Position numbers and translations under genes: made by a program
UHGV virus genome: UHGV-0110803
Direction: 5' to 3' (one strand)
DNA: 29,302 nt
Source of the DNA: a virus
In this document: positions 2,202 to 24,337 of the stretch, one piece after another
Layout: each line of letters opens with the position of its first letter
Numbering within the stretch: the first letter of the stretch is position 1
The notes under the pieces: generated by a model
Databases searched by the model: none
The model's input: the letters and a program-made list of their open reading frames with translations, nothing else
Told to the model about the DNA's origin: nothing

Positions 2202-2202
2202 G

Positions 2203-4824
2203 TTATCGTCCTGATTGCTGGCCGTTCTGGAAAATGTTAATCAGGTTGTCGCGCTGACTTTCTGCGCTGTATTCCTTAGACTGTCCGGGAGTATATTTCA
2301 CCGGAGTATCAATGAACTTGGTAATGCGGTTCCATACTGATCGGTTGGTTGTTCCCAGTTTCGCCAGATCGTTGAACGGCACCGTAATCGGGTTGCCGTC
2401 GGCACCGTTGACGATCAGCCCGTTGAGCATCAGGGTAAGTCCTGTTTCGTCGCTGTTGGTAACCCACTGCGCATTATCACGAATGCGGGAGATACTCTGC
2501 TCACGGTTGACCTCATCAGGTAGCCTTGGGTCACCAATAAGCGGCATAATCTGATCTGCTGACAGGTTTTTCAGATACGCATTGGCACCATCGTTAACGT
2601 CACGAATATCTACCCCTGCACGATTAGGTAGCCGCCAAGTGCCATTGGTCTGGTACTGCTCGCCGAGAAGGTCCTGATACGCCTGTTTTGCTGCATCAGA
2701 CGCCGACATTCCGCGCTGCATGTAGTTGTAGGTCAAGCGTTTTCCCTGCTCGTTATAAATAGTCCAGTTTTCAGCACCATTTCTCTGAGGAATAAGAGTT
2801 GAAGAAAAATCTTTAAATTGATCTGTCCACGATGAGTCTGCACTGTCTGCCTGGTTTTTATCCAAACCAGATCTCAAATCAGAAGTAGGTACATTCCGTA
2901 TTTGCCACAACGCATCTGCTGCCCGTTGGTTTTCTGTAGACATTACAACCTTTAAAGCTGGGAATGCTTTATTTTGCACCTGCCGCATCACCTGATCCGA
3001 GTATTTGCCGAACGACTGCGCCACCGACTGAATGGCCTTTACGCTAGATTCCTGCGTGTTGTCAATACGCTGCAGTACGTCGTTGACCATGGACTCCGGT
3101 AAAACTTTTTTGCTCATTATCCCCAGGCGGTCTTTTTCAGACTGTATGCGGGAAACTAGGTATTCACCAGATGAAGGGTCATTCAGGTACTGCTGGAATG
3201 CAGCCTGCACAACCGGAGAGTTTTGTTGCAGCCATGCCCCCGGATCCGCTTCCCGCGCCTTCAGTACCTGCCCAAGCTTGACCTTTGCCGATGCATAAAG
3301 CTCTGCTTTGTATTTAAAGTCAGAGTCGTTTTCCTGCGGTGCCATTGCCTGCACGGCGGCGGTACCTTGCTGGACGTTGCCCTGCATAATGGTCTGATAA
3401 ACAGGTTGTAGCGTCATTGCCTGCTGGTATTGCTGGAAGGTTTTTTCCATCTGCAGGCGCTCGGCAGGCGCTGCCTGAAGCGGCATAACGGCGGCCCATT
3501 CGTGCGCTGAAATAGGCGTCACCTGCTTACCGGCCTCAATTTTGGATAGGTCGTCCTGCATTCGACTCTGTAGCGCAACGCGACCGGCTGAAGCCTGCAT
3601 GTCGTACATGCCAGCAACCTTGCTCATCATCTGCGACTTTTTGTCCGGACTCATGGCGTTCCAGAATGGCTGTGCGATGAGGTTTTCCATCGTCGCAGAT
3701 CCAGGAATAGCTCCAGCACTGCCAGTTACTTTTGCCACATAATTGCGCGTCTCGTCGTATGGGATAGCTGCGGCAAACTGGGCGTTACTGACTTCGCCTG
3801 TGCGCGGATCGCCAATCTGTTTAATCCAGCCGTCAACCTTTCCTGGGCCAGCGTTATAGGCAGCTACTGCCAGAACCGGGTTATTGTCGTATTTCTTCAT
3901 CTGCGCGCCGAAATAAGCTTGCCCCAAGCGGGCATTATAGCGCGGGTCATTCAACCATTTATCTCGGTCCCACGGCACGCCAGCAAGGCGGGCAGCTTCG
4001 GGGCCAGTATCTTCCGTCACCTGCGCTACGCCAACAGCGCCTTTTGGCGACACCAGAGGTGTTCCGTCCTTTCCGTACTGATTTCCGCCACTCTCCTGCC
4101 AGATTATTGCAGAGAATAACTGCGCCTCACTCGGTGTATCGGTTACCTCAATCTTGCCGTTCGGACCCATCATCTGTTGATACATCGGCACATACCACGC
4201 CTCCGCCGCACCGTTCGCGGCATTCTCGCGCCACGAAACCCAGTTCTGTTCAATCTCTTCCTGACTCTGGCCGTGGGCTTCGCCGTAAGCGATGATGCTA
4301 TGATATGCCTTCAATCCTGCCTGGTTTGCCATTGTCGGGTTACGGAACTGCATCGATAGGTTTTTTAGTGTCGCATCCTGCATATCCGCCTCATACTGGC
4401 GAACCTGTCCTATTTCGTACCTCCCGGCCTGCGTAGTGAACTGAATGCGCTGCTGCTGCGCCTGCTGCATGAAAGCATTACGAGCCTGTTCATCCGGCAG
4501 CGACATAGCCAGTTGTTCGACCTGAGCATCAAACTGCTGCGTATACTCCTGACCTTTTCCAATAGCATTTTTCCCTTTCAGGTTAAGCAAACCTGTTTCA
4601 GGGTTATTCAGCAGATCGCTGCCTGTCTGACTGAGTTTAAGGGATGCCTCCTGAACCATAGCAACATTCTCTTTCTGCCTGGCTTCACCATATGCCACCG
4701 CATACTGATCTGCGACATTCGCCAGCACCTGACCTGCTTGAGGAACATCGAAGGTCTGAAAACCACCGGTTTGCACACCACGACTTTGCACCTGGCGGCC
4801 GGATGTAGTAGGAACAACAGGCAT
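2203..4824 (-). CDS. Internal virion protein with lytic transglycosylase (SLT) domain (873 aa)
   Basis: SLT signature IIWQESGGNQ ... AYNAGPGKV inside a large virion-module ORF. Confidence 0.75.
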   Translation of the reverse strand: MPVVPTTSGRQVQSRGVQTGGFQTFDVPQAGQVLANVADQYAVAYGEARQKENVAMVQEASLKLSQTGSDLLNNPETGLLNLKGKNAIGKGQEYTQQFDAQVEQLAMSLPDEQARNAFMQQAQQQRIQFTTQAGRYEIGQVRQYEADMQDATLKNLSMQFRNPTMANQAGLKAYHSIIAYGEAHGQSQEEIEQNWVSWRENAANGAAEAWYVPMYQQMMGPNGKIEVTDTPSEAQLFSAIIWQESGGNQYGKDGTPLVSPKGAVGVAQVTEDTGPEAARLAGVPWDRDKWLNDPRYNARLGQAYFGAQMKKYDNNPVLAVAAYNAGPGKVDGWIKQIGDPRTGEVSNAQFAAAIPYDETRNYVAKVTGSAGAIPGSATMENLIAQPFWNAMSPDKKSQMMSKVAGMYDMQASAGRVALQSRMQDDLSKIEAGKQVTPISAHEWAAVMPLQAAPAERLQMEKTFQQYQQAMTLQPVYQTIMQGNVQQGTAAVQAMAPQENDSDFKYKAELYASAKVKLGQVLKAREADPGAWLQQNSPVVQAAFQQYLNDPSSGEYLVSRIQSEKDRLGIMSKKVLPESMVNDVLQRIDNTQESSVKAIQSVAQSFGKYSDQVMRQVQNKAFPALKVVMSTENQRAADALWQIRNVPTSDLRSGLDKNQADSADSSWTDQFKDFSSTLIPQRNGAENWTIYNEQGKRLTYNYMQRGMSASDAAKQAYQDLLGEQYQTNGTWRLPNRAGVDIRDVNDGANAYLKNLSADQIMPLIGDPRLPDEVNREQSISRIRDNAQWVTNSDETGLTLMLNGLIVNGADGNPITVPFNDLAKLGTTNRSVWNRITKFIDTPVKYTPGQSKEYSAESQRDNLINIFQNGQQSGR

Positions 4825-5390
4825 CAGTAACCTCCTATTTTGAATCGGGAGTCAGAATTCATAAAACCTGAGTTAGATAACATTGGCGTGTTTCCTTGCT
4901 TACTAATCGGATTGATACTTCCGCCACCCAACTTATATGCACCGTACGCTTTTAGTGGTGCCGTTAACAAAGTGCTGGTCATCGATGATTTAGCAGCCGA
5001 CTGAGCAGCAGCCCCCTGTGCCTGAGCATTCATTCCCTGAACCTGATACCCATATGCCTCACGCTGAGCATTATTCACTGTCGTTAACGCATCAAGAGTG
5101 CCGAACTGAGCATTATCCGCAAAAACGTCAAGAGCTGTTCCGCTACTTAATTCCGCACCGGTAGCCCCCATAGTGGCCGCCGCAGTACCTGAGCGTTGAC
5201 GCATTTCACGACGACGCTGATCCGCTTCAATATTCCCACGATTGATTGAATCCTGTGCCTGAGCTTCAGCAATTTCAGCATTCCGATCAGCTATGGCTGA
5301 CTGGTATTTTGCCTGCTTGCTCTGGCTGTACATTGACGCGGCTGTGGATGCCACTGTGACGGCAACCAAAGCGATGGCTGGGTTACACAT
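4824..5390 (-). CDS. Internal virion protein with N-terminal transmembrane helix (gp14-like position)
   Basis: N-terminus PAIALVAVTVASTAASMY is hydrophobic; Gln/Ala-rich remainder; gene order after tail tubular genes. Confidence 0.5.
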   Translation of the reverse strand: MCNPAIALVAVTVASTAASMYSQSKQAKYQSAIADRNAEIAEAQAQDSINRGNIEADQRRREMRQRSGTAAATMGATGAELSSGTALDVFADNAQFGTLDALTTVNNAQREAYGYQVQGMNAQAQGAAAQSAAKSSMTSTLLTAPLKAYGAYKLGGGSINPISKQGNTPMLSNSGFMNSDSRFKIGGY

Positions 5391-14031: not shown

Positions 14032-14099
14032 ATCAATGACTCCGTACGCAATTAAATTATTACCAATTTAACCACATATGATTTATTTATCGTAGGCAG

Positions 14100-14136
14100 T
14101 TGACATTTAATGCGCGAATTATTACCTTTGAGGTAA
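14100..14136 (+). promoter_or_regulatory. Putative promoter region for the tRNA/moron cassette: TTGACA, AATTAT, then palindrome TTACCTTTGAGGTAA (14122-14136)
   Basis: TTGACA at 14100-14105; the decamer AATTATTACC is shared with the pL-like promoter; the -35 to -10 spacing is suboptimal (11 bp). Confidence 0.4.
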
Positions 14137-14458
14137 CCAAAGAGTTCATTCCGGTTACTAACATGACTGGCTTGTCGTTAAATTGAACAGGTGGAGTGAG
14201 CTTTTATTTTGAGCAGTACGGCGTATGGCACATGCGCCGATAGCGGTCTGGATACGTTTAAGGGGCACCCTCCCTTGCTCGGGCAAACGAACCAGGTAGC
14301 CGGAATGTGCAAGTCGAGCGGTTTTATTCCGCGCACGGGGATTCACCATCCCGGCGATTCGGTGTGACGCCTCGGAAGAGACGAGGGTACAACGATGAGA
14401 GCATTTATGGAGCCGCGACAAAGTGTGGCGCCTTAACAGGCTAAGTGCTCTCAGCGTT

Positions 14459-14535
14459 GTGGCATTAGCTCAGTTGGACAGAGCAACCGCCTTCTAAGCG
14501 GTTGGTCGCAGGTTCGAATCCTGCATGCCACGCCA
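14459..14535 (+). tRNA. tRNA-Arg (anticodon UCU), CCA encoded
   Basis: Cloverleaf folded by hand: acceptor GTGGCAT/ATGCCAC, D-stem GCTC/GAGC, anticodon stem ACCGC/GCGGT with loop CTTCTAA, T-arm GCAGG-TTCGAAT-CCTGC, discriminator G, CCA. Confidence 0.85.
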
Positions 14536-14578
14536 GAATCACGCCTAAGGACCGTGATGCCAGAAGTTCCAGGTGCTT

Positions 14579-14620
14579 GGCGGTGATGGTTTCCCTTGAA
14601 GGACTATCACCGCCCTTTTT
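14579..14620 (+). terminator. Hairpin plus T-tract 3' of the tRNA (GGCGGTGAT ... ATCACCGCC CTTTTT)
   Basis: 9-bp perfect stem followed by a T-run; functional on the plus strand only. Confidence 0.45.
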
Positions 14621-14698
14621 ACAGCAGGACGCCATTGCGATGACTTCATGCTGTAAACCAGTACAGCCACGGAAGGCAGAACTCATTGCTTCCAGTTC

Positions 14699-14723
14699 GC
14701 CCGGTTCGTCCGGGCATTTTTTT
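14699..14723 (+). terminator. Intrinsic terminator-like hairpin GCCCGG-TTCGT-CCGGGC followed by ATTTTTTT, immediately upstream of the RBS of the 139-aa ORF
   Basis: GC stem plus 7-T run; RBS AAGGTGA follows directly. Confidence 0.5.
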
Positions 14724-14734
14724 AAGGTGAGATT

Positions 14735-15154
14735 ATGAAGACAATTGATATGTTGGCTAAGTATCTAAATGAATGGCCATTAAAATATTCTCGTATCGTT
14801 CAGGCTGAAGACTGCGTTTTTTATGGCGTTTTTGCTGGTAATGAAATGCATTACGAAGTAATTCAGAGTGAGGGACTGGCCGGGTTAACTCTTAGCGAAG
14901 ACCATGGTACTAGCGTTACGTTCCATGACTGGATAACAGCACAACGTTCTGAAATGGAAAAAGGCGATATGTTTGATATTTCTCGCGCTGTTTACGCTAA
15001 AGCAAAAAGTGATCATGATTACATGAGCGAACACTTATACAACATGAAGTTACAATGCCTGCATGCGGCGCTTATTCAGAATGGGCACTTCGATAAAACA
15101 AGTGCCATCAATATTGCGGAAGCCATCAACGCTGGATTTAATGCCATTAAGTAA
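14735..15154 (+). CDS. Orphan moron protein, 139 aa, no recognisable domain
   Basis: AAGGTGA RBS; visibly AT-rich relative to flanking genes; opposite strand to the surrounding late operon; own terminator. Confidence 0.6.
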   Translation: MKTIDMLAKYLNEWPLKYSRIVQAEDCVFYGVFAGNEMHYEVIQSEGLAGLTLSEDHGTSVTFHDWITAQRSEMEKGDMFDISRAVYAKAKSDHDYMSEHLYNMKLQCLHAALIQNGHFDKTSAINIAEAINAGFNAIK

Positions 15155-15158
15155 CACC

Positions 15159-15170
15159 GTGACATGTCAC
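15159..15170. repeat. Perfect 12-bp palindrome GTGACATGTCAC, copy A
   Basis: Identical 12-mer recurs at 17610-17621 with similar flanks (AACACC upstream). Confidence 0.8.
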
Positions 15171-15174
15171 AAAC

Positions 15175-15203
15175 AGCCAGCCGATGAGCTGGCTTTGTTT
15201 TAT
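15175..15203 (+). terminator. Intrinsic terminator of the moron cassette (AGCCAGC-CGATGA-GCTGGCT then TTGTTTTAT)
   Basis: 7-bp stem plus T-tract on the plus strand; no U-tract on the minus strand. Confidence 0.6.
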
Positions 15204-15244
15204 CCTCATCAGAGGATATCAACGACATTATCCCCACCAGCGGA

Positions 15245-16720
15245 TTAAGCATATGGATCGTAATCTGTGATGGCCTTGCCTTGCTGGTTCTGCTGCCCGG
15301 GAATTCGCAGACGCTTCGACACAGGGAACGCAAACGTCAGCAGTAGCGCATCGCCTTTACCAGGAGAACGCCCAAGCCGCTCCTTGATATCTTCCTTCGG
15401 TTCGATAACGATTTTACCGTCCACTCGAACTTTGTACTCTGCCGCCGACAGGTCGTCCGCTGTTTCCTGGTCATCAAGCATGCCGCCCAGCCTCAGCCAC
15501 GTCTTGCATGAGTTGAACATCTCCCCGCGCTTATTGAGCATCTGCGGGTCAGTAGACGCGCCACCGAACGGAACAAGTTGCCATGTACGACCCCAGCCGT
15601 CACCGATTGACTTCAGACCAGTTCCGTAACCGAAGTCGATGAACACCGCGTCAGCCTGATACTGGTCTTCAAAGTCAGCGATACGCTTTGCCATAATCAG
15701 ATCGTCAGTGGTCTTGTTGCCGGTCCACAGCACCTTACTGTGCAGCCCCTGCCGCAGGTATATCACCGCATCATCAACGCCTGAGTATGCCGGGTCAACG
15801 CCGATTATCACCGGAGCATGTGCAACCTGCGCAGCGGTGACCACCCGTTTCATTGCCTCGTCAGTAAGTCCGGTAGGGATAAACTGCAATTCAGATGCAT
15901 CCGGGAATATGCCGCGCACACGGATTTTAACGAAGTCGCTGTCTTCCCCGTAGTCATCAACCCATTTCTGCAACTGCTGTTTGTTAGTGCCTTCCACCGT
16001 CCGGCTGTCAATCTGCGCAGTTTTCCAGCGGTGTTTATATTTGCGGAAACATTCGCGGAAACGTCCGGTATTACGCGTCGGGTTTCCGAACGCCACCCAG
16101 ATAATCTCAGTGTCTTCGTCCGTTAGCGCACCCTCGGCAACTTCCCACACCAGATCCGCAATGTTCGACGCTTCATCGAATACCACGATGATGCGTTTGC
16201 GCTCGTTGTGTAGTCCGGCGAATGCCTCAGTGTTGTGCTCAGACCAGGGGATTGCGTCAGCTCGCCACCGCTTGTCGTGCCCAGGATCATTGCTGTACAT
16301 CGCGGTAGCGGTACAGGTAAACCAGTCTTTCGTGATAGCAAGGTTCGACCACTTGATAATTTCCGGCCAAGTCTTCGTTCGTAGCTGGTTGTCGGTGTTG
16401 GCGGTCACCACGACCTTACAATCCTCGCAAGTGGACATGCCCCAGTTGATCAGCATTGAGATGAATGCGGATTTACCAATACCGTGACCAGAAGCGCGTG
16501 CCAGCATAAGCGGCTGATAGCGCGTCTCTGGATTCTGCAGGTGATCACGTATCTCTCGGAACGCATCGGCCTGCCACTGACGTGGACCGGTGGCATGTGC
16601 CAGTTCAGTCCCCTCTTCCCCCCACGGGAACGCATAGAGGGCATAACCAAGCGGATCGTGAGTGAACCCTGCAATATCCTCGATCAACTGCTCTTCAGGA
16701 GATAACGCTGTATCTGTCAC
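15245..16720 (-). CDS. terL: Terminase large subunit (491 aa)
   Basis: Walker A-like SGHGIGKS, ATPase then nuclease-domain layout, 4-nt overlap with the small-subunit gene. Confidence 0.85.
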   Translation of the reverse strand: MTDTALSPEEQLIEDIAGFTHDPLGYALYAFPWGEEGTELAHATGPRQWQADAFREIRDHLQNPETRYQPLMLARASGHGIGKSAFISMLINWGMSTCEDCKVVVTANTDNQLRTKTWPEIIKWSNLAITKDWFTCTATAMYSNDPGHDKRWRADAIPWSEHNTEAFAGLHNERKRIIVVFDEASNIADLVWEVAEGALTDEDTEIIWVAFGNPTRNTGRFRECFRKYKHRWKTAQIDSRTVEGTNKQQLQKWVDDYGEDSDFVKIRVRGIFPDASELQFIPTGLTDEAMKRVVTAAQVAHAPVIIGVDPAYSGVDDAVIYLRQGLHSKVLWTGNKTTDDLIMAKRIADFEDQYQADAVFIDFGYGTGLKSIGDGWGRTWQLVPFGGASTDPQMLNKRGEMFNSCKTWLRLGGMLDDQETADDLSAAEYKVRVDGKIVIEPKEDIKERLGRSPGKGDALLLTFAFPVSKRLRIPGQQNQQGKAITDYDPYA

Positions 16721-17313
16721 TGATTACCATCCTGACGTTCTTTGAGTCGCTTCCTGGCTGCTGCTATGCGATCAGCAATTGTCACATTCACATTAACATC
16801 CAGACGTTCTTTGAACGCGTTGACATCAACATGCTTACCAATCAGCTCAAGGTTCTTCACCTTGTCAGGCCATTTAATTTTTTTGAGGATTGTCTCTATC
16901 GAATCCTCGTTCATGTTCATGATGGTCGATGACAGATCAAAGCCACTAAGCGTAGTGCGCCAGATTTTCGGCCACTCACGGATTGGTTTAAGGCTCCCAT
17001 CGTCGTTGAGGATGTCGATCACGTCCATCTGGTCGATCTCCACCAGGCGCATGAGAACGTAATCAGCACTGACGCGCATTCGTTTGTTGCGCTCCTCCAT
17101 CAACTCGGCAATCCGTTTTTGAATGCGTTCATCGCGCATCATGACACTGGCTTTAACTGCCGCTGTATTTGGGGAGAATCCTGCGTTAATCGCTGCCTGA
17201 GTCTGGTTTTCAGGCGTTTTGATGTATGACTGGCAATAAGCCTCCTGCATTGCTGTTAGTGGCTTAAATTGCGTTGATTTGCGTTTATAGGTTTTAGGTT
17301 CAGCAGGCATCAT
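16717..17313 (-). CDS. terS: Terminase small subunit (about 198 aa from tandem ATG ATG; track ORF starts at an upstream TTG)
   Basis: Motif LTAMQEAYCQSYIK ... QTQAAINAGFS typical of small terminase HTH region; AAGGTGG RBS before the ATG pair. Confidence 0.8.
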   Translation of the reverse strand: MMPAEPKTYKRKSTQFKPLTAMQEAYCQSYIKTPENQTQAAINAGFSPNTAAVKASVMMRDERIQKRIAELMEERNKRMRVSADYVLMRLVEIDQMDVIDILNDDGSLKPIREWPKIWRTTLSGFDLSSTIMNMNEDSIETILKKIKWPDKVKNLELIGKHVDVNAFKERLDVNVNVTIADRIAAARKRLKERQDGNQ

Positions 17314-17330
17314 AACCACCTTGGTAATAG

Positions 17331-17353
17331 TTACCGTTGTGGTAATAGTACCA
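17331..17353 (-). promoter_or_regulatory. Palindrome TTACCGTTGTGGTAA fused to an extended -10 (TGG TACTAT on the minus strand) upstream of terS
   Basis: Perfect half-sites; the -10 hexamer shares its last base with the palindrome, the same geometry as three other promoters in the window. Confidence 0.5.
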
Positions 17354-17354
17354 T

Positions 17355-17382
17355 GCAAAATAAAGCCGCCATAGTTGGCGGC
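17355..17382 (-). terminator. Intrinsic terminator after the 70-aa gene (GCCGCC-AACTAT-GGCGGC then TTTATTTTG on the minus strand)
   Basis: 6-bp GC stem plus U-tract, located 5 nt after the stop codon. Confidence 0.55.
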
Positions 17383-17387
17383 AGTAT

Positions 17388-17600
17388 TCAAAGTCCATCA
17401 AATTCATCGTAAAAACTCTCGTCAAGATACCCTTCCCATTTACCGCGAATGAAAATTACATCCTCGCCGCAAGGGTGCTGACTGTCGATAACTATATCCC
17501 TCCTGGCGCAACCATACTTATGCATGAGAAATTTAACCTCTTTCGGAAAATTTGCTGAGTTATCTCTCATATCTTCAAGGTCGTAGCGTATTTTTGGCAT
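17388..17600 (-). CDS. Hypothetical small protein (70 aa from ATG)
   Basis: GAAGGTG RBS; the GTGACATGTCAC palindrome lies immediately upstream. Confidence 0.4.
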   Translation of the reverse strand: MPKIRYDLEDMRDNSANFPKEVKFLMHKYGCARRDIVIDSQHPCGEDVIFIRGKWEGYLDESFYDEFDGL

Positions 17601-17609
17601 AACACCTTC

Positions 17610-17621
17610 GTGACATGTCAC
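17610..17621. repeat. Perfect 12-bp palindrome GTGACATGTCAC, copy B
   Basis: Sits exactly at the junction between the 113-aa gene stop and the RBS of the 70-aa gene. Confidence 0.8.
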
Positions 17622-17959
17622 ACTATTAATTTCGTTTCATGCCAGCCTTTAGTCACCCAGCATTGCGAGTCACCATTACACGGGCATGAATTCACAGGAA
17701 CTCTCTCGCCGCACTTACCGCAACGTTTTCTGCTGATCGATTTTATACGCCCGCGCACGCGTGCATCATCCTGGCGGATCAGTAACGCTATATACTCACC
17801 AAATTCGTAAGGCGCACGCCCGGGGCGACGTGTGGCACAGTTACGCTCCAGCATTTCAATTTCCTGAGCATCAAGCACAATCTCCAGCTTACGCACACCA
17901 GATGCAGCTTGTCTGGCTCTCTGAGCGGCTTTGCGCTCTGCTGCTGATTTAGCCATCAA
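17618..17959 (-). CDS. Hypothetical protein with basic N-terminus and Cys-rich C-terminus (113 aa)
   Basis: C-terminal CGKCG ... CPCNG ... C cluster suggests a zinc-ribbon; no family assigned. Confidence 0.45.
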   Translation of the reverse strand: MMAKSAAERKAAQRARQAASGVRKLEIVLDAQEIEMLERNCATRRPGRAPYEFGEYIALLIRQDDARVRGRIKSISRKRCGKCGERVPVNSCPCNGDSQCWVTKGWHETKLIV

Positions 17960-18230
17960 TATTTACCTTTATCGCGAACACCTTTACCGGTTTATCACCG
18001 AAGTGCGGATGTGTGATTGTCTTGATTTCATATCCGTCATACGGGACGTCAATTCTGCGGCAGGAATCGTCGCGCTTCGGATATCCCTTTGTGATAATCA
18101 GGCGGTCATACTCCCGGAACATAATTCGCTTATTCCAGTAGTCATTACACAGGCGATACTCTTCCGTTTTCTCGCCTGACTTCATCTGGTCGAAATATTC
18201 ACCTTTGACGGCAAGTTGCAGGTTAGCCAC
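17949..18230 (-). CDS. ASCH/PUA-like domain protein (93 aa, GTG start)
   Basis: AGGAGG followed 6 nt later by GTG; N-terminal pattern KGEYFDQMKSGEKTEEYR resembles ASCH-type domains (from memory). Confidence 0.5.
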   Translation of the reverse strand: MANLQLAVKGEYFDQMKSGEKTEEYRLCNDYWNKRIMFREYDRLIITKGYPKRDDSCRRIDVPYDGYEIKTITHPHFGDKPVKVFAIKVNIDG

Positions 18231-18795
18231 GGTTAACCTCCTGCGGCGGTTCTGGTAGTGGCATCCAGTGTGACGGCTCACATACCCCCTCAACACCATT
18301 CATGTAAAAGAATTGAAATAACCCTTTACCTTTGTGAAACCCTACCATCTGCTCTTTTGTGTCTGAGCAATAAACCAAAACATCTTCTTCGTTTGGCATT
18401 CGCTCACTACAGCTTATCCAGCCATCCTGAGTTACCGGAGAGTTGCCAGACAGCGCGTTCTGCAACCGCTCCAGCTTCACATATTCCTGAACCCTGTTTC
18501 CGTCACATGACTGAAGCCATTGCGCAGCCTTTTTCGCATCAGTATGAAAGGCACAAGTGCGTCCATCCTCAAATTGCATTTCGTAAAGGTCAGCAACCTG
18601 TTCAAAGTGCGTTTGTGGCAAGTTGTAAGTTTGGCTTACAGGTTCTGCACTATCAGCTTCGCGCCGCTTCTGTAGCTCTGCTGCCATCACTCTCACGACT
18701 TCAACTGGTGCCCTTGCAGCAAACTCCATGTTGGTGATCAGCTCATTAAGATATTGATCGCTGGGATACTGTTTCTTATCGGTTATAGTGGTCAT
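18223..18795 (-). CDS. DUF551-type phage protein (190 aa from the MTTIT start)
   Basis: C-terminal motif GWISCSERMPNEEDVLVY ... HWMPLPEPPQ matches the DUF551 pattern; GGAG RBS before the internal ATG. Confidence 0.6.
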   Translation of the reverse strand: MTTITDKKQYPSDQYLNELITNMEFAARAPVEVVRVMAAELQKRREADSAEPVSQTYNLPQTHFEQVADLYEMQFEDGRTCAFHTDAKKAAQWLQSCDGNRVQEYVKLERLQNALSGNSPVTQDGWISCSERMPNEEDVLVYCSDTKEQMVGFHKGKGLFQFFYMNGVEGVCEPSHWMPLPEPPQEVNRG

Positions 18796-18796
18796 A

Positions 18797-19186
18797 TCAC
18801 TCTCCTTTTCCCTGAAGCATAGCGGCACGGCAGGCGTTCCAGCCTCTCACCTCTGCAATAGCAGCAACAGCATCAACCGCGTACATGCTAAGAGGATTAG
18901 GCATTGGTTTTTCTTCCGGTACTACTGGAACGGGTGGAGCGGCGTAGACCTCAATAATTCCATTATCAATAGGCCACTCCCCATCCTTGATGTAGTCACT
19001 TGTGCCGTCAACTTGCTGTTCTGCAATGTGAAATGCACCTATTGGTTTTGCTTCCAGCGATACCAGTGCAATACGAAACACATTGGCAAGCAGGCTGTTT
19101 GAAGATTGGTTATCGTGCGCCGGGTCGCTCAGGAAACCAGTGATGAATGATTTAATTTCCGCGTTTTCTCTGGTAATAGTGGTCAT
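18797..19186 (-). CDS. Hypothetical protein (129 aa), N-terminus MTTIT
   Basis: Coupled to neighbouring genes; shares the first five residues and start-region DNA with the next gene. Confidence 0.4.
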   Translation of the reverse strand: MTTITRENAEIKSFITGFLSDPAHDNQSSNSLLANVFRIALVSLEAKPIGAFHIAEQQVDGTSDYIKDGEWPIDNGIIEVYAAPPVPVVPEEKPMPNPLSMYAVDAVAAIAEVRGWNACRAAMLQGKGE

Positions 19187-19548
19187 GCCGTAGCCCCTTC
19201 TTGATATTTTTCAAACCAGAACACAATCGGGTCAGATTTCATTTCAACCAATCCCATACGAACCAGCGCTTTGCCTTTCCCGGACGCAAGGAATTCACGA
19301 CGACCATCACTGATAATTCGCCGATAATCTTCCAGGCTGCTGCAATGCTTGTGCAGATTGCATGGGTGGCATGCCGGAACCATGTTGGATATATCGTCAC
19401 GTTCCTGGTGAAGCATATTTCCAGCAAAACGAATGACCGGTTTTACATGGTCTGCATGCCACTTTTCGCCAAGTTCGCAGCCGCAATAAGCACAGCGACC
19501 GCCGAACTTCATGCGCAGCTCTGCACGTTGTTTTTTCGTCAGTGCCAT
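19183..19548 (-). CDS. HNH endonuclease (121 aa)
   Basis: CAYCG ... HADHVKP ... ACHPCN motif. Confidence 0.8.
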   Translation of the reverse strand: MALTKKQRAELRMKFGGRCAYCGCELGEKWHADHVKPVIRFAGNMLHQERDDISNMVPACHPCNLHKHCSSLEDYRRIISDGRREFLASGKGKALVRMGLVEMKSDPIVFWFEKYQEGATA

Positions 19549-19549
19549 A

Positions 19550-19948
19550 TCACTCTCCTTTGATGCGAATGCCAGCGACGCGTAGTGCGTGTTCTAAGTC
19601 AATCAGGCAAAGCCAACTGCCATTTTCTTTAGGTATCATGACATGCCGCTTATTAGCATTTATTGGGTGCCCATATCGAAGGTCGTAGCGAGTCGGTAAT
19701 TGAACTTCCCTCGCTTCCAGTTCTGTAATGCGTTTGTTTTTAGCTTCTAGTTCATCCAGTAGCGCCAGCACGCTTTCTGGTCCGGCCAGAATTTTGAAGG
19801 CATTGAGCGCATCAATATCAACACCGCTATCTTTAAGTTCCTGCTCGCTTATCAGATCATCATCAACTGGCAACATTAACAGGCGTTCCATTGCCGGAAT
19901 TGCACGCTCTGCCGCCTCACGCAGTGCCTGATAGTTAATTTTGGTCAT
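19550..19948 (-). CDS. Ead/Ea22-like protein (132 aa)
   Basis: N-terminus MTKINYQALREAAERA typical of Ead/Ea22-like phage proteins (from memory). Confidence 0.5.
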   Translation of the reverse strand: MTKINYQALREAAERAIPAMERLLMLPVDDDLISEQELKDSGVDIDALNAFKILAGPESVLALLDELEAKNKRITELEAREVQLPTRYDLRYGHPINANKRHVMIPKENGSWLCLIDLEHALRVAGIRIKGE

Positions 19949-19949
19949 A

Positions 19950-20249
19950 TCACATCACCCTGAATCCGTTGCATTTACGTAAAAAATCGCAGATATAGCC
20001 CTTCATTTTTTCGTGCCAATCTCGATCATTCCCATTGCACCAACCATCAGGTGGAGTCCAGTTTTCTATCAGAGCAGCCATTTTCTTTGCTTTTGCAGGA
20101 GTAGCTGTTGCGGTATCGCAGTAATGACGAGTGTCGATCAACGTATCCATACCATCGATATCAAGTACGCAAAACCATGTGTGATTCGGCATTTCAACAG
20201 ATGGTATTTGTTGCCCACGTCGACGTTTATCAATAAGACATACAGTCAC
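19950..20249 (-). CDS. Hypothetical protein (99 aa)
   Basis: ORF with 4-nt overlap to the upstream gene; no recognisable domain. Confidence 0.4.
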   Translation of the reverse strand: MTVCLIDKRRRGQQIPSVEMPNHTWFCVLDIDGMDTLIDTRHYCDTATATPAKAKKMAALIENWTPPDGWCNGNDRDWHEKMKGYICDFLRKCNGFRVM

Positions 20250-20746
20250 TTGTTGCCTCCTTCACGTAGCTCGGCGGCAAAAGCTACTGCGTGATCATGA
20301 TGTTCAAGTGTGTATGCACACTCCGCAAACATCTCCACGCCCTGCGCACGTACTTCAGCCAGAAAAGCATCGGTGGCTGGAGTTTCGCTGTGGTGTAGGG
20401 CATCGTTGATAATCATTGCAGCAACACCAGCCTGCCCTGCATCCGTGACCGACACATGCTCAAGAGTTACAGCCATTGCATGTTTCAGCCCAGCATTCTC
20501 CGCCGCCAGCGCTGAAAACTTCTCGTGTGCCAACTTAACAGCCGAATCAGCCTGCTTAATTGACTCAATCGCTTTCTGGTGGTCTTCGGCCAGCGCATTA
20601 GCACGCACCAGTTGCACTTCCAGTTGCGTTGCCAAATCGCTGATCAGCTTTGCCACACTGCGCATATCAACGGCACCACATTCTGCTTTCAGTTCCGAAG
20701 CCATCTCATGCCCGGCGGAAACTAACCCTTTGATATTACTTTCCAT
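20246..20746 (-). CDS. Hypothetical protein (166 aa), Ala-rich and helical
   Basis: GAGGG RBS; no recognisable domain. Confidence 0.45.
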   Translation of the reverse strand: MESNIKGLVSAGHEMASELKAECGAVDMRSVAKLISDLATQLEVQLVRANALAEDHQKAIESIKQADSAVKLAHEKFSALAAENAGLKHAMAVTLEHVSVTDAGQAGVAAMIINDALHHSETPATDAFLAEVRAQGVEMFAECAYTLEHHDHAVAFAAELREGGNK

Positions 20747-20807
20747 CTTTACCCTCGCTTATCCACATAACTTATTGATTACATTGATAACTAAAAAGAT
20801 CGTCGAT

Positions 20808-21152
20808 TCAGAACTCTTCGATGTTCCAGCCACCACCTGCTTTCTTTGGTTTAACCGTTACCCCGATGATTCGGAACGGATACTGATCTGCGGCGACTTT
20901 GGTTTTCACCCTGGCGTCGTCGGTCCAGAAACCTTTCACTTCGTGCAGTTCCATCTCGCCGGTGGCGAGCATCACAGCAAAATCGGGCGTATAGAACGTG
21001 TTGTCAGCTAACCGCAGCTTGATACCCTCAAATCGATACCAGACGATTTCTCCTGCACGTTTACGCAGCTCAAGGTGCTGGCAATACGCAGATTCTGTTT
21101 TGTTCATCTGGCCTGTTTTGAGTCGACCAAGAGCCTGTATCTGTTTTCTCAT
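20808..21152 (-). CDS. DUF1064-like small PD-(D/E)xK-type protein (114 aa)
   Basis: Pattern YTPDFAV ... ELHEVKG; its RBS GAGGT lies inside the palindrome at 21156-21170. Confidence 0.5.
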   Translation of the reverse strand: MRKQIQALGRLKTGQMNKTESAYCQHLELRKRAGEIVWYRFEGIKLRLADNTFYTPDFAVMLATGEMELHEVKGFWTDDARVKTKVAADQYPFRIIGVTVKPKKAGGGWNIEEF

Positions 21153-21155
21153 GAT

Positions 21156-21232
21156 TTACCTCTTAGGTAATTAAAAACCACATAAGACACGAAATCAATA
21201 GAGTTTAGAATATTTTGTTACCTGATAGGTAA
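21156..21232 (-). promoter_or_regulatory. Minus-strand promoter with two perfect palindromes: TTACCTGATAGGTAA (21218-21232), -35 TTGATT, 17-bp spacer, -10 TTTAAT fused to TTACCTCTTAGGTAA (21156-21170)
   Basis: Same geometry as the pL-like promoter: site, 19 bp, -35, 17 bp, -10 sharing one base with the second site; 62 bp centre to centre. Confidence 0.55.
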
Positions 21233-21244
21233 TCATTGAGGCGT

Positions 21245-21264
21245 AAAAAAATGCGCTATCGCGC
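21245..21264 (-). terminator. Weak intrinsic terminator after the P-like gene (GCGC-GATA-GCGC then TTTTTTT on the minus strand)
   Basis: Short GC stem plus 7-U tract directly after the stop codon. Confidence 0.35.
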
Positions 21265-21269
21265 TGGTA

Positions 21270-22070
21270 TTACTTGATAAATCCTGCCGCCTTTCCCCGC
21301 CTGTATTCCTCCATCAGCCACTGCGCCGGTGTTATTCCCCCAAGGGTGGCGGCGTTAGGCATGCACCCGAAACTTCGCCCTGGTGGATGGTAAACGTCTC
21401 TCCCTGTGTCCGGAGGTGTACTCATGGGCTCTCGCTTTGCCTGTATGCTGATCACCGGATCGGGTATCTGCTGTCCGGAAGCTACCTTTTTCGCCCAATC
21501 ATCGAGCAGCCTGCGCGCGTGTTTCTCAACCTCAATCTCGCTAAGCTGGCGCTGATACATTGCACGGCGGGTATCACATACGACCCAGTACATAACCGGA
21601 TGTCGCCACGGGAATCTTTCGGGACCACCAGGATATAAACTTTTTTCCTTGCTGTACCGGTGAAACTCCGCCATCACATCGTCAATGGTGACGCCAAGAA
21701 CCATCTTGCTGTCTTTACACCACTTGATGAATTGCCCTGGCGACGGCCAGAACGGAGACTCACTGGCGCGGGCGTGGCGCATACCAGCAGAAACCTGTTC
21801 ACGGGTTCGGATCCCCCCTTCGGCAAACGCAGCAATCCACTGCTGTTTTGCAGCAACTTCCTGCTCTGGCGTCTTCAGGTTGGTTACCACTGCCGCCGGA
21901 AACAGTTGTTTCAGCTGTTTGAAAAGGGCATCAACAAGCCTCTCTGCTGACATGTTCACCACGTTGTCATTGTTGGTGTACTGATGCTCATAACCTGACA
22001 TGCGAGAAAGGGCTTCTCCGTCACGGTTTTGTATCGCGGTAAAAACGTTGTTCACAAGAAATCCTCCCAT
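21270..22070 (-). CDS. Replication protein P-like (helicase loader), 266 aa
   Basis: Segment QQWIAAFAEGGIRTREQVSAGMRHARASESPFWPSPGQFIKWCKD closely parallels lambda P (recalled, not searched). Confidence 0.75.
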   Translation of the reverse strand: MGGFLVNNVFTAIQNRDGEALSRMSGYEHQYTNNDNVVNMSAERLVDALFKQLKQLFPAAVVTNLKTPEQEVAAKQQWIAAFAEGGIRTREQVSAGMRHARASESPFWPSPGQFIKWCKDSKMVLGVTIDDVMAEFHRYSKEKSLYPGGPERFPWRHPVMYWVVCDTRRAMYQRQLSEIEVEKHARRLLDDWAKKVASGQQIPDPVISIQAKREPMSTPPDTGRDVYHPPGRSFGCMPNAATLGGITPAQWLMEEYRRGKAAGFIK

Positions 22071-22867
22071 GCTTCAGGGCTGTTCCAGTGCGGAACGTTG
22101 TTATCAGGTAATGTTGATTGCTTCTGTCTGCTAATCTGCAGCCTCCTTGCCAGCTTCTGCTCCCACTGTGCCTGATGGTATGCCTTACCCTCAGCCATCC
22201 AGTAAATTCTGAACTCTGCAAGTTCCTGTGCCGTTGGCAGACTGTCCAGGTAGATCCCCTGCAATGAGCTTTTCCGAAGAAAGTCATCTGATGGTTGCCA
22301 TTGTTCATGCATGACAAATTTGCCTAATTGCCCTGGCCCACCAGGAGGAACAAAGTTATTCATCACGGCGTTGTTTGCGCCGGGGTCATGAGACACAGAA
22401 TCCCCGTTTTTTGTCCTGCTCTCCCTCTCTTGGTTAAATGACTGGTTATATGACTGGTTCTGGATCCCGTTTTTGGGATCATTCAACATCCCGTTTTTGG
22501 GATCATTCAACATCCCGTTTTTGGGTATATTCCCGTTTTCGGTAAAATTACCGTTTTCGGGTTCATTACCCCCTTCCCGGTTGCCTTTAATGTTCCCGTT
22601 TTTGGTTATATTAAGAGAGAAAACCCGCACTCTTTTTGTCGCTCCCTTTCTCTCTCCGGTATCTGAAATAAGCCCCATTTTCATGAGCGATATAAGCCCG
22701 GCCTGCACGGTTTTTTTATTCAGGCAAGTGTCTTTAACGAGGCGTTCTATGCTGGGGTAGCAGAGGTTATATTCATCGGCTCTGTCAGCCATCGAGAGCA
22801 GTATGAGCTTTAATGATGAGCTACCTGGATCTGTCTCCCAGGCCCAATCTGTTGCATGTCTGCTCAT
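22052..22867 (-). CDS. Replication initiator, O-like (N-terminal winged-HTH, internal iteron-encoded repeats), 271 aa
   Basis: N-terminal HTH-type segment, internal peptide repeats encoded by the DNA iterons, 19-nt overlap with the P-like gene. Confidence 0.7.
   Translation of the reverse strand: MSRHATDWAWETDPGSSSLKLILLSMADRADEYNLCYPSIERLVKDTCLNKKTVQAGLISLMKMGLISDTGERKGATKRVRVFSLNITKNGNIKGNREGGNEPENGNFTENGNIPKNGMLNDPKNGMLNDPKNGIQNQSYNQSFNQERESRTKNGDSVSHDPGANNAVMNNFVPPGGPGQLGKFVMHEQWQPSDDFLRKSSLQGIYLDSLPTAQELAEFRIYWMAEGKAYHQAQWEQKLARRLQISRQKQSTLPDNNVPHWNSPEAWEDFL
22464..22612. repeat. Iteron array (putative replication origin) inside the O-like gene
   Basis: ATCCCGTTTTTGGGATCATTCAAC twice in perfect tandem followed by four degenerate CCCGTTTT(T/C)GG units; flanked by AGAGAGAAA/TTTCTCTCT inverted repeats. 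Confidence 0.65.
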
Positions 22868-22882
22868 GATTAATCTCCGCTA

Positions 22883-23083
22883 TCAGCTTGAGTGTTGTGG
22901 GGAGGAATTAATCATGATCTGCTTAATCTCTGCCCTGATGCGACGGTTTGATTCCATGGTGCACTCAACACAGTGTCCGTTGTAAACCCAGCGTTCACTG
23001 TCATGTCCGTGCTTACATGGTTTTCCGGTGTAGTAGCGTTTAAGTCCGCGCTTTGCGGCATCAATACGTGTAATGATTTCCAT
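22883..23083 (-). CDS. Small Cys/His-containing protein at the cII-equivalent position (66 aa from ATG)
   Basis: C-x-H-x-H ... C-x-x-C pattern; track ORF carries an implausible N-terminal extension. Confidence 0.4.
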   Translation of the reverse strand: MEIITRIDAAKRGLKRYYTGKPCKHGHDSERWVYNGHCVECTMESNRRIRAEIKQIMINSSPQHSS

Positions 23084-23163
23084 GGTAAGCCCTGTTATTA
23101 GTATTGGGATTACGGTTATTTTGTGCTGACACAAAAAAAAGATCAACCATATTTGGTTTTTTA

Positions 23164-23178
23164 TTACCTTTGAGGTAC
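23164..23178. promoter_or_regulatory. Operator-like palindrome TTACCTTTGAGGTAC (one mismatch) just downstream of the tR1-like terminator
   Basis: 14 of 15 bp identical to the site at 14122-14136. Confidence 0.45.
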
Positions 23179-23184
23179 GAATAG

Positions 23185-23212
23185 ATATGAAAAGACCGCC
23201 GGATGGCGGTCT
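23185..23212 (-). terminator. tR1-like intrinsic terminator after the Cro-like gene (AGACCGCC-ATCC-GGCGGTCT then TTTTC on the minus strand)
   Basis: 8-bp GC stem plus U-tract about 20 nt after the stop codon. Confidence 0.55.
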
Positions 23213-23233
23213 ACAGAGGGTTGTGGCTGGATA

Positions 23234-23464
23234 TCATGAGTAGAAGAAGTATGCCAGTTCTGCTTTTGAGCGCAGCCATTGTCTTGATTTACAGGCTTTA
23301 AAAAGCCCATCCATCAATACATTACCTGGCATTTTGCGCTTACCTGTTAAGTGAGTCTGGATATAGTGACTCGTCGTTCCGGCTTCCTGTGCGAAGGCTT
23401 CACGCTCATCCGGAGTAAGTGCAAGCCAGTGCTTTTTGAAATCGAAATGTCCGTTATCGCTCAT
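23234..23464 (-). CDS. Cro-like HTH regulator (76 aa)
   Basis: HTH-like segment AFAQEAGTTSHYIQTHLTGKRK; divergent from the repressor gene across an operator cluster. Confidence 0.55.
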   Translation of the reverse strand: MSDNGHFDFKKHWLALTPDEREAFAQEAGTTSHYIQTHLTGKRKMPGNVLMDGLFKACKSRQWLRSKAELAYFFYS

Positions 23465-23500
23465 AGCTATTGCCTGATATTTATTTCAGATAATAAATAT

Positions 23501-23563
23501 TCACCCATAAGGTAACAAAAATCAAGGATAGTTACCCATGAGGTGCATTTACCTGTTGGGTAA
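23501..23563. promoter_or_regulatory. Operator cluster of three TTACC-N5-GGTAA-type palindromes between the divergent regulator genes
   Basis: TCACCCATAAGGTAA (23501-23515), TTACCCATGAGGTGC (23532-23546), TTACCTGTTGGGTAA (23549-23563). Confidence 0.6.
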
Positions 23564-23618
23564 TATTGCTTTAAATTGAATCATCTACTGATTCATATAT
23601 GAGGCGATTTTCCAGAAA

Positions 23619-24203
23619 ATGAAAAGTATCCAGGACGTCCGCAGGCAAAATCTCAACGACTTGATCGACCGTGAATTCAATGGTGTTCAGACGCGGATGG
23701 CAGAAAAACTTGGAACTCAGGCAAATCTGGTAAACCGCTGGGCTCTTGGCAAGAAGGTTATCGGCGACCAGGTTGCGCGAAAAATTGAAGCTGCCGCCAA
23801 TAAACCACGTAACTGGCTTGATATCGATCGCTCGCTTTCTCAGGAAGGTTTTCAGCCTGTCGGCCCAAGCGACATTGGTCAGCTGGCGGCTCACAACCTG
23901 GAACGCTGGATGAGCGAAAGCCGCGACCTTTCAACTCAGGGAAAACTTCACCGCGCATCCGGCGTCGCCCAGGTGACAATCAGCCGCCTGTTAAACAATG
24001 AGGTCAGCGTTTCCATTTCCACCCTGGAGAATGTTGCATCCGCATTCGGGCGTCACGGCTATGAATTACTGATTCACCCGCACGACCCTGCGACCATCAA
24101 CTATGACCGCTCGCGCTACGCATTGTTACCCGAAACCGAGAAAGCAAAGATCGAAAGTTACATTGAATTTGTCATCAACCAGAACGAAAAAAACAAACAA
24201 TAA
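23619..24203 (+). CDS. Prophage repressor candidate with two HTH motifs and no peptidase domain (194 aa)
   Basis: Two XRE-type HTH segments (QTRMAEKLGTQANLVNRW and ASGVAQVTISRLLNN); no Ala-Gly/Ser-Lys autocleavage signature seen. Confidence 0.6.
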   Translation: MKSIQDVRRQNLNDLIDREFNGVQTRMAEKLGTQANLVNRWALGKKVIGDQVARKIEAAANKPRNWLDIDRSLSQEGFQPVGPSDIGQLAAHNLERWMSESRDLSTQGKLHRASGVAQVTISRLLNNEVSVSISTLENVASAFGRHGYELLIHPHDPATINYDRSRYALLPETEKAKIESYIEFVINQNEKNKQ

Positions 24204-24223
24204 AATCATACTTTTCAGTAAGT

Positions 24224-24250
24224 AAGCCGCCTTCTGGCGGCTTTTTTATT
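24224..24250 (+). terminator. Intrinsic terminator after the repressor gene (AAGCCGCC-TTCT-GGCGGCTT then TTTTATT)
   Basis: 8-bp stem plus T-tract. Confidence 0.65.
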
Positions 24251-24260
24251 GCCTATACTG

Positions 24261-24337
24261 TTACCTAATAGGTAATTTTCTTAACTCATATCTATTGACA
24301 TCAAACCAAATACGCATAATTATTACCTCAACGGTAA
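24261..24337 (+). promoter_or_regulatory. pL-like promoter: palindrome TTACCTAATAGGTAA (24261-24275), -35 TTGACA (24295-24300), 17-bp spacer, -10 AATTAT fused to TTACCTCAACGGTAA (24323-24337)
   Basis: Consensus -35; two perfect palindromes 62 bp apart centre to centre. Confidence 0.6.

Follow-up and report, generated by a model that had tools for sequence, protein, structure and literature searches.

Palindromic TTACC-N5-GGTAA sites as probable phage-wide operators of the repressor Rep in a phiV10/epsilon15-like prophage

The window and its immunity region

The stretch of DNA analysed here, UHGV virus genome UHGV-0110803 (29,302 nucleotides; hereafter the window), was assigned by sequence comparison to the prophages of the phiV10/epsilon15 group, genus Uetakevirus, and is about 96-98% identical to phiV10 across most of its length, in reversed orientation. 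It starts within the structural genes and ends at the integrase start codon, and is therefore without the tail-fibre, O-antigen-modification, lysis and ant regions. The immunity region holds the repressor gene rep and, divergent from it, a gene for a Cro-like protein. A palindrome, TTACC-N5-GGTAA, is found between these two genes, behind the cro terminator, at a pL-like promoter, after the replication genes, before the small terminase gene terS and at the junction of the head operon with a tRNA-Arg unit. Based on their frequency, placement and conservation, we propose that these palindromes are, in all probability, the operators of Rep throughout the phage.

Abundance and placement of the palindromes

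An exact search of the window recovers seven perfect sites (14122, 17331, 21156, 21218, 23549, 24261 and 24323; sites are named here by their first position), all of which had been listed in an earlier, sequence-only reading of this DNA. In dinucleotide-preserving shuffles the mean number of perfect sites is 0.02 and none of 100 shuffles reaches seven, which is consistent with the earlier estimate of about 0.03 chance occurrences per 29 kb. When one mismatch is allowed, ten sites are found against 0.52 expected, the additional three being 23164, 23501 and 17313. The sequence-only reading had named 23164, 23501 and 23532 as near-perfect; the first two do deviate at a single position each, but 23532 (TTACCCATGAGGTGC) carries two mismatches, yet is kept in position among relatives, and 17313 had been missed. 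Among all 5+5 palindromes with spacers of 0-12, the TTACC half-site with an N5 spacer ranks first in the window and likewise in three related genomes. The motif derived from 192 unique perfect sites reads aTTACC-t-n-W-n-a-GGTAAt, with almost no information in the spacer.

The placement of the sites is equally restricted. All 11 lie within the approximately 7.9% of the window that is outside the listed genes, where they occupy six separate intergenic regions, and four further regions are occupied in phiV10 beyond the window. An E. coli chromosomal control of 50 kb contains no perfect site and three sites with one mismatch, so that a comparable density is not seen in non-phage DNA. Chance and base composition are ruled out as the origin of the sites by this control, the enrichment and the confinement to intergenic DNA.

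Conservation of the sites across related phages

A scan of related phages reveals the same motif at homologous positions and with fixed spacings. With up to one mismatch, there are 14 sites in phiV10, 15 in epsilon15, 15 in Enterobacter phage Tyrion and 13 in Klebsiella phage BUCT711, and Salmonella phage SPC32H has 10 perfect sites along with several imperfect ones. The motif is shared while the repressors of these relatives are just 42-78% identical to that of the window. Within the immunity region, the pL-like promoter has two or three conserved sites and the rep-cro interval three, with an imperfect one behind the cro terminator. An operator pair is found after the replication genes, two sites 18 bp apart stand right before terS, and one is located upstream of gp3 and the head operon. 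Outside the region covered by the window, one or two sites occur around ant and the tail-fibre gene, one lies between the O-antigen gene and the lysis genes, and one precedes int. In every genome, 62 bp separate the two members of the pL pair and those of the pair that follows the replication genes (63 in one BUCT711 pair). Over all loci, neighbouring sites are spaced almost exclusively by 17, 18, 30, 48 or 61-63 bp, among which 17, 48 and 62/63 dominate, the 62/63-bp spacing alone occurring 228 times. This conservation of position and spacing spans phages of four host genera.

Conservation at single bases was counted over 80 IMG/VR loci with an identical Rep N-terminal domain, a set that is uninformative for divergence. 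The half-sites at 23549 and 24261 are invariant in these loci, and those at 24323 vary in three of the 80, while two to four alleles occur in the spacer and flank columns of the strong sites. The weak sites, in turn, deviate in a fixed way: TCACC at 23501 and GGTGC at 23532 are each present in 80 of 80 loci, and the deviations of 23164 are also conserved. Sites that a protein binds with tuned affinities would be expected to combine invariant half-sites, drifting spacers and fixed deviations at weak sites in this manner.

Predicted promoters at the operator-bearing units

The features of the operator-bearing loci are given in Table 1. The promoters among them are pattern-level predictions. The sequence-only reading had placed the distal sites at the starts of the pL-like, post-replication, terminase and tRNA units, and at all four of these an operator abuts or overlaps the predicted -10 element. 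At the pL-like promoter, where the segment CTATTGACA is conserved in six genomes, the final T of the -10 element is the first T of the proximal operator. The same coincidence is observed on the opposite strand for the DUF1064/eae/ead unit after the replication genes (operator 21170-21156) and for the -10-like element before terS (operator 17345-17331). At the tRNA-Arg unit, the predicted -10 element instead lies inside the operator.

The layout after the replication genes, in which a terminator is followed by an operator, a promoter and a second operator, is conserved as a whole in six genomes. The ATTGA and the -10 TAAT of this promoter are invariant at a fixed spacing in the same genomes, and its proximal operator includes the GAGG Shine-Dalgarno sequence of the DUF1064 gene, which starts at 21152. 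Likewise, the TTGAC of the tRNA-Arg promoter does not vary among six genomes and stands at a constant distance from the operator, and the -10 pattern TAnnnT is kept in all. A tRNA-Arg(UCU) is found at the same place in phiV10, SPC32H and BUCT711 and is absent from epsilon15 and Tyrion, and the operator and the TTGACA element are retained in all these phages, with or without the tRNA. The earlier description of the tRNA cassette as a moron needs correction: site 14122 lies at the junction of the head operon and the tRNA-Arg unit, and a repressor-controlled tRNA would be a lytic-phase function. The tRNA-Arg(UCU) of phiV10 (2853-2929) is unannotated, and the open reading frame phiV10p04 (2672-2923) has been drawn over it.

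Between the divergent Cro-like and repressor genes, the three sites that the sequence-only reading had taken for operators are all present (23501, 23532 and 23549) and align with those of relatives. The segment TTGATTTTT in the region of the predicted cro promoter is unchanged in six genomes, and the counterpart of OR-2 is perfect in epsilon15, SPC32H and BUCT711. The site behind the cro terminator is imperfect also in phiV10, Tyrion, SPC32H and BUCT711. Its candidate roles are those of a roadblock, a looping partner or antisense control. A promoter-like element, CTGACA-16-CATATT (23126-23153, + strand), is located just upstream of this site and faces cro; it could produce a repressor-controlled antisense RNA to cro, which might account for the site.

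The open reading frame of terS (16717-17391 with a TTG start; 41-715 in phiV10) begins upstream of the terminator and of both operators. The terS annotation of phiV10 is probably 81 nucleotides (27 codons) too long, the start conserved in the genus being the ATG at 17310. Upstream of the head operon, a leader block of 56 bp contains the element TGgTTAAAT and, at a distance of exactly 62 bp from operator 14122, a GGTAA half-site. The block is conserved to an extent that exceeds coding DNA, and its candidate functions are those of a late promoter, an activator site or an RNA leader. An element common to two leaders (TATGTGGTT) is only about twofold enriched, with 12 occurrences against 5.7.

Table 1. 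Operators, predicted promoters, terminators and genes at the operator-bearing loci of the window
Feature	Position	Strand	Description
Leader block upstream of head operon	14040-14095	-	56 bp; most columns invariant across six genomes (four host genera)
Predicted promoter toward tRNA-Arg	14100-14128	+	TTGACA-17-TACCTT; -10 inside operator 14122
Operator	14122-14136		Perfect; between head operon (gp3 homologue, start 14031, - strand) and tRNA-Arg unit (+ strand)
tRNA-Arg (UCU)	14459-14535	+	ARAGORN and Rfam; downstream of operator-bearing promoter
Second terS operator	17313-17327		One mismatch; 18 bp from terS operator; holds terS GGTGG Shine-Dalgarno, ATG at 17310
terS operator	17331-17345		Perfect; homologous epsilon15 site 12-27 annotated as repressor-binding
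Extended -10-like element (predicted)	17345-17353	-	TGgTACTAT; read from alignment; invariant in five genomes
Terminator upstream of terS	17365-17382	-	Pattern scan; annotated in epsilon15 and phiV10
Proximal operator, post-replication promoter	21156-21170		Perfect; 62 bp from distal operator
Predicted promoter of DUF1064/eae/ead unit	21170-21198	-	TTGATT-17-TTTAAT; read from alignment
Distal operator, post-replication promoter	21218-21232		Perfect
Terminator after P-like replication gene	21245-21267	-	GCGC-N4-GCGC then T7; conserved in six genomes; annotated in phiV10
Operator behind cro terminator	23164-23178		Single; one mismatch
cro terminator	23193-23212	-	Pattern scan; annotated at homologous phiV10 position
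Cro-like gene	23234-23464	-	76 amino acids; divergent from rep; homologue of phiV10p41 and epsilon15 gp39; no Pfam match
Predicted cro promoter	23490-23525	-	Registers TTGATT-17-GAATAT or TTGTTA-17-TATTAT; pattern scan
Operator OR-3	23501-23515		One mismatch (TCACC); occupies spacer of predicted cro promoter
Operator OR-2	23532-23546		Two mismatches (GGTGC); 17 bp from OR-1
Operator OR-1	23549-23563		Perfect; closest to rep; perfect in 80/80 loci
rep repressor gene	23619-24203	+	194 amino acids; 100% identical to phiV10p40
rep terminator	24224-24243	+	
Distal pL operator	24261-24275		Perfect; directly after rep terminator; upstream flank 2-4 alleles per column
Predicted pL-like promoter	24295-24323	+	TTGACA-17-AATTAT; top promoter-like match of the region, 10/12
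Proximal pL operator	24323-24337		Perfect; 62 bp from distal operator

The palindromes might also be viewed as RNA hairpins with a role in termination, processing or translation, or else as products of chance or composition or targets of restriction-modification, readings to which we assign next to no likelihood. A hairpin of 5-7 bp can be drawn at each site and several sites overlap ribosome-binding sites, but the hairpins are weak (-3.5 to -5.3 kcal/mol) and are not followed by a T-tract. Transcripts from the predicted promoters would not include the distal members of the 62-bp pairs, which are located upstream of these promoters, and this further counts against hairpins. The spacers carry little information, and the stem bases of the strong sites are constant over the 80 loci, which is consistent with recognition of a specific sequence rather than of a structure. 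The hairpin reading was rejected on the weakness of the hairpins and the constancy of the stem bases.

Rep as the probable binding protein

The Rep protein of the window is a full-length match to the repressor of SPC32H (PDB identifier 5D50; phmmer E-value 4e-42, residues 1-190 aligned with 2-197 of 5d50_A), and among solved structures it matches only SPC32H Rep entries. In descriptions of the SPC32H protein, DNA is bound by the N-terminal domain, the domain that comes next serves dimerisation, and the C-terminal domain serves both tetramerisation and the binding of the antirepressor Ant (PMC9986798, PMC9638917). The protein is reported to bind palindromic sites as a tetramer (PMC9638917); its domain pairs are about 100 Å apart, and DNA-looping regulators have the same tetramerisation fold (PMC9986798). 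In the window Rep, Pfam identifies an HTH_3-like region at residues 106-147, matches of the helix-turn-helix type being the only ones, and no Peptidase_S24 domain. By homology, Rep would begin with a DNA-binding domain, continue with an HTH_3-like domain and end in an oligomerisation region, through which its alignment with SPC32H Rep extends. The earlier description of Rep as a tandem helix-turn-helix repressor needs correction: since the domains of SPC32H Rep are described in this way, the tandem arrangement is probably one DNA-reading head, at the N-terminus, and a second, helix-turn-helix-like module that most likely serves dimerisation. The window Rep has the same presumed recognition helix, NLVNRW, as the repressors of Tyrion, SPC32H and BUCT711. 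The N-terminal alignment of 75 amino acids, in which a Pseudomonas homologue is included, has 23 invariant columns, and the C-terminal half is about 40% identical to that of SPC32H Rep as judged by eye. A homologue search initiated with the Rep N-terminal domain returned near-identical fragments only.

Two further lines of evidence connect Rep with the palindromes. The RefSeq record of epsilon15 (NC_004775.2) labels seven homologous sites as protein_bind features with the repressor as the bound protein. In addition, the half-sites accompany the Rep N-terminal domain into a group of phages outside the genus. Pseudomonas phage PseuP_224 is a siphovirus unrelated to the window, whose cI has an N-terminal domain homologous to that of Rep (39% identity, E-value 4e-15) and, unlike Rep, a Peptidase_S24 C-terminal domain. 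ATTACC-N4-GGTAAT sites are located 73 and 34 bp before this cI and once after it (TTACC-N4-GGTAA sites at 19922, 19961 and 20823), and these are the only three in the 31.7 kb examined. The arrangement was followed in 21 IMG/VR relatives, with the loci re-ranked on the Pseudomonas sequence. In 20 of the 21, N4 sites surround the phage's own cI, with both upstream positions occupied in 19 and a single upstream site in one; their half-sites are invariant and their spacers variable. The remaining locus, which is the most distant (48% identity), has no such site. Thus, the PseuP_224-type repressor resembles Rep in its N-terminal domain and in the TTACC/GGTAA half-sites around its gene, and differs in its N4 spacer, its S24 C-terminus and the restriction of its sites to the immunity region within the 31.7 kb.

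The Cro-like protein, alone or together with Rep, is an alternative candidate for the main reader of the distal sites, which it would use for a lytic turn-down like that of lambda Cro. In lambdoid switches, Cro and CI share operators. Across the genus, identity among the Cro-like proteins is 58-83%, with a conserved stretch (AGTTSHYIQTHLTG) and AGTTSHYIQ invariant, and the Pseudomonas phage, too, encodes a divergent protein of 76 amino acids with a GTTxxY motif beside its TTACC sites. However, the two Cro-like proteins share no similarity detectable by BLASTP, whereas the Rep N-terminal domains do match, and in the epsilon15 record it is the repressor that is given as binding the sites. We therefore consider a leading role of the Cro-like protein rather unlikely. 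A part for it would be compatible with binding by Rep: because the GTTxxY motif is shared and the protein is well conserved within the genus, Cro may share the sites, as in lambda.

It is quite improbable that another phage regulator activates these units in the lytic cycle, for example the gp49/p55-type protein encoded upstream of terS (17618-17959). Sites do precede the late units, and the phiV10 and epsilon15 records call this protein a transcriptional regulator, but in the window it has no Pfam DNA-binding match. Moreover, the rep/cro trio and the pL-like pair are in classic operator positions, the operators overlap the -10/+1 region rather than lying upstream of -35 as is usual for activator sites, and unrelated Pseudomonas phages that have the Rep N-terminal domain have the motif as well.

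Some observations weigh against Rep acting through operators at these promoters. As a class, promoter-like matches are not enriched in the region (9 against 13.6 in shuffles), and the -10 elements of terS and the tRNA unit are weak matches that were read from alignments. No convincing promoter can be assigned to site 23164. The Cro-like protein is even better conserved across the genus than Rep, and a MAFFT alignment shows the GTTxxY motif to be common to it and the Pseudomonas Cro-like protein. The protein_bind features of epsilon15 may themselves be predictions, and according to a structural paper of 2023, the mechanism by which SPC32H Rep represses 'has not been extensively characterized' (PMC9986798). 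On the other side, every computational test able to speak against a phage-wide regulon came out in its favour. The earlier proposal that one DNA-binding protein gates the units of this phage is supported by the enrichment, the intergenic confinement, the conservation, the overlap with predicted -10 elements and the epsilon15 labels, from which we infer direct binding and gating by Rep.

Proposed mechanism of repression and induction

We hypothesize that the N-terminal helix-turn-helix heads of two Rep subunits read the two half-sites, the centres of which are 10 bp apart and would therefore be presented one helical turn from each other. Operators are positioned at the start of nearly every unit, namely the rep/cro switch, the pL-like recombination operon, the post-replication unit, the terS/packaging unit and the tRNA-Arg/head junction, in addition to the one behind the cro terminator. 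Bound Rep would block RNA polymerase directly, because the operator starts on the last base of the -10 element at three of the predicted promoters and contains it at the fourth. At two promoters, the second operator is exactly 62 bp upstream, that is, about six turns away and on the same face of the helix, and one Rep tetramer or two cooperating dimers may clamp the promoter in a small loop. Such a clamp would agree with what is published on SPC32H Rep, namely its tetrameric binding, the distance between its domain pairs and its looping-type tetramerisation fold. In the lysogen, Rep would perhaps silence each unit separately, without a cascade of the lambda type.

The route of induction is suggested by homology with SPC32H and phiV10. 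In this scheme, cleavage of LexA would release the small antirepressor Ant, which would dismantle the Rep tetramers. The SPC32H Rep-Ant lytic switch (PDB identifiers 5D50 and 5D4Z) is reportedly treated in Kim & Ryu 2013 J Virol and Kim et al. 2016 PNAS, and the former reportedly describes the dismantling of SPC32H Rep by LexA-controlled Ant, a route that is restated in part in PMC9638917 and PMC9986798. The ant gene and its LexA box are not within the window, the ant region lying outside it. In phiV10, Ant (20543-20800) is 88% identical to that of SPC32H (19676-19936), and a LexA box (CTGTATAAATACACAG) is located just upstream of its gene. The Rep proteins of the two phages, by contrast, are only about 42% identical over their full length and roughly 40% in the C-terminal half, to which Ant binds; either the surface contacted by Ant is small and conserved, or a recent exchange of modules took place.

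A broader scheme, which we offer tentatively and which may well prove wrong, is one of 'flat' control. Tetrameric Rep would clamp every promoter by a reusable operator-62 bp-operator module, and disassembly of the tetramers by Ant would free early, middle, packaging and tRNA units simultaneously. Conserved differences in operator strength (23501, 23532 and 23164), and not an antitermination cascade, would then determine the timing. The same TTACC-reading head would have been recombined onto an Ant-sensitive tetramer (N5) and onto a RecA-sensitive S24 dimer (N4). If so, the N5/N4 pairing would be a natural system for the study of how oligomerisation geometry sets operator spacing.

Comparison with known systems

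A phage-wide set of such sites is already in the public record for epsilon15, the type phage of the genus, and the central claim is thus not new. In NC_004775.2 (GenBank AY150271; Kropinski et al. 2007, Virology 369:234) repressor-binding sites are annotated at 12-27, 2931-2947, 19895-19911, 32479-32494, 32554-32570, 32616-32632 and 35906-35922. These coordinates coincide with scan matches of (A)TTACC-N5-GGTAA(T) and include the terS, head, tail-fibre, pL and post-replication positions, the site at 2931-2947 being the counterpart of operator 14122. The epsilon15 set agrees with that of the window in its half-sites, its N5 spacer, its homologous positions and its 62-bp and 17/18-bp spacings. 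It differs in listing seven sites where the scan finds 15, the rep/cro trio and the second member of a 62-bp pair being unannotated, and its repressor is only about 42% identical overall to the window Rep. What is added here is modest: the OR trio and the partner sites of the pairs that the record omits, the constant 62-bp bracket with its junction of -10 element and operator, the conserved graded imperfections of the weak sites and the Pseudomonas N4 variant. Full-text literature searches for the motif and for Uetakevirus returned nothing relevant. A paper on phage ZX5 tests Rep and Ant by overexpression and describes no operator (PMC9782041).

The SPC32H switch is close to that of the window in that its Rep is a full-length homologue without an S24 autocleavage domain and the same motif is at the same places. 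It differs in its Rep C-terminal half, which is about 40% identical, and in its ant gene and LexA box, which the window does not contain. The sequence-only reading had likened the sites to the operators of P1 C1. This likeness holds for the functional logic, one immunity repressor being predicted to control many separate units through dispersed operators (six intergenic regions here), but does not extend to the components. The operators of P1 are asymmetric 17-bp sites bound by a C1 monomer, whereas the window sites are perfect palindromes and Rep matches only SPC32H Rep among solved structures, being unrelated to C1.

As in the lambda CI/Cro switch, the rep and cro genes are divergent and separated by three graded operators, and another cluster of operators is found at a pL-like promoter. 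As had been stated earlier, the arrangement is otherwise unlike lambda, given the operators beyond the OL/OR-type positions (terS, the head/tRNA junction and the post-replication unit) and the lack of an S24 domain in Rep. In lambda, the counterparts of the middle, packaging and tRNA/head units are governed via antitermination by N and Q and not by CI. The stoperators of mycobacteriophage L5 gp71 are asymmetric and orientation-dependent, lie within transcribed operons and halt elongation. Unlike these, the window sites are palindromic, all intergenic and mostly placed over predicted core promoters, and site 23164, behind the cro terminator, is the only one able to act as a roadblock like an L5 stoperator.

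Prophages of the phiV10/epsilon15 type are common in E. coli, Salmonella, Enterobacter and Klebsiella, and would be silenced promoter by promoter by a single repressor. For genome annotation, the sites are absent from the record of phiV10, the nearest named relative, in which the start of terS is probably also too far upstream. Knowledge of the sites permits the prediction of cross-immunity between phages that share the operator and is of use in building reporter phages from phiV10. The conserved 62-bp operator pair and the Pseudomonas N4 variant provide testable handles on how an SPC32H-type Rep tetramer engages DNA.

Other features of the window

A LexA-box-like sequence (CTGTAAACCAGTACAG) is located at 14651-14666 (2722-2737 in phiV10, where it is conserved), between two terminators and upstream of a gene similar to Sf6 gp66 (14735-15154). 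LexA boxes in the window number two against 0.49 expected, and ten of 100 shuffles reach two, which is no more than chance. Rfam identified only the tRNA in the window. No exact copy of this prophage was found among complete E. coli genomes, the top match being 97.6% identical. Unlike the remainder of the window, positions 1-5035, which encode virion genes, hardly match phiV10 at the nucleotide level, as would be expected if the distal structural genes had taken part in a mosaic exchange. The DnaT-like replication-initiator gene (22052-22867) contains three neighbouring tandem-repeat arrays at 22431-22570, with a 12-bp unit repeated 2.4 times, a 24-bp unit repeated 2.6 times with 100% match and an 18-bp unit repeated about three times, and these look like origin iterons such as those in the lambda O gene.

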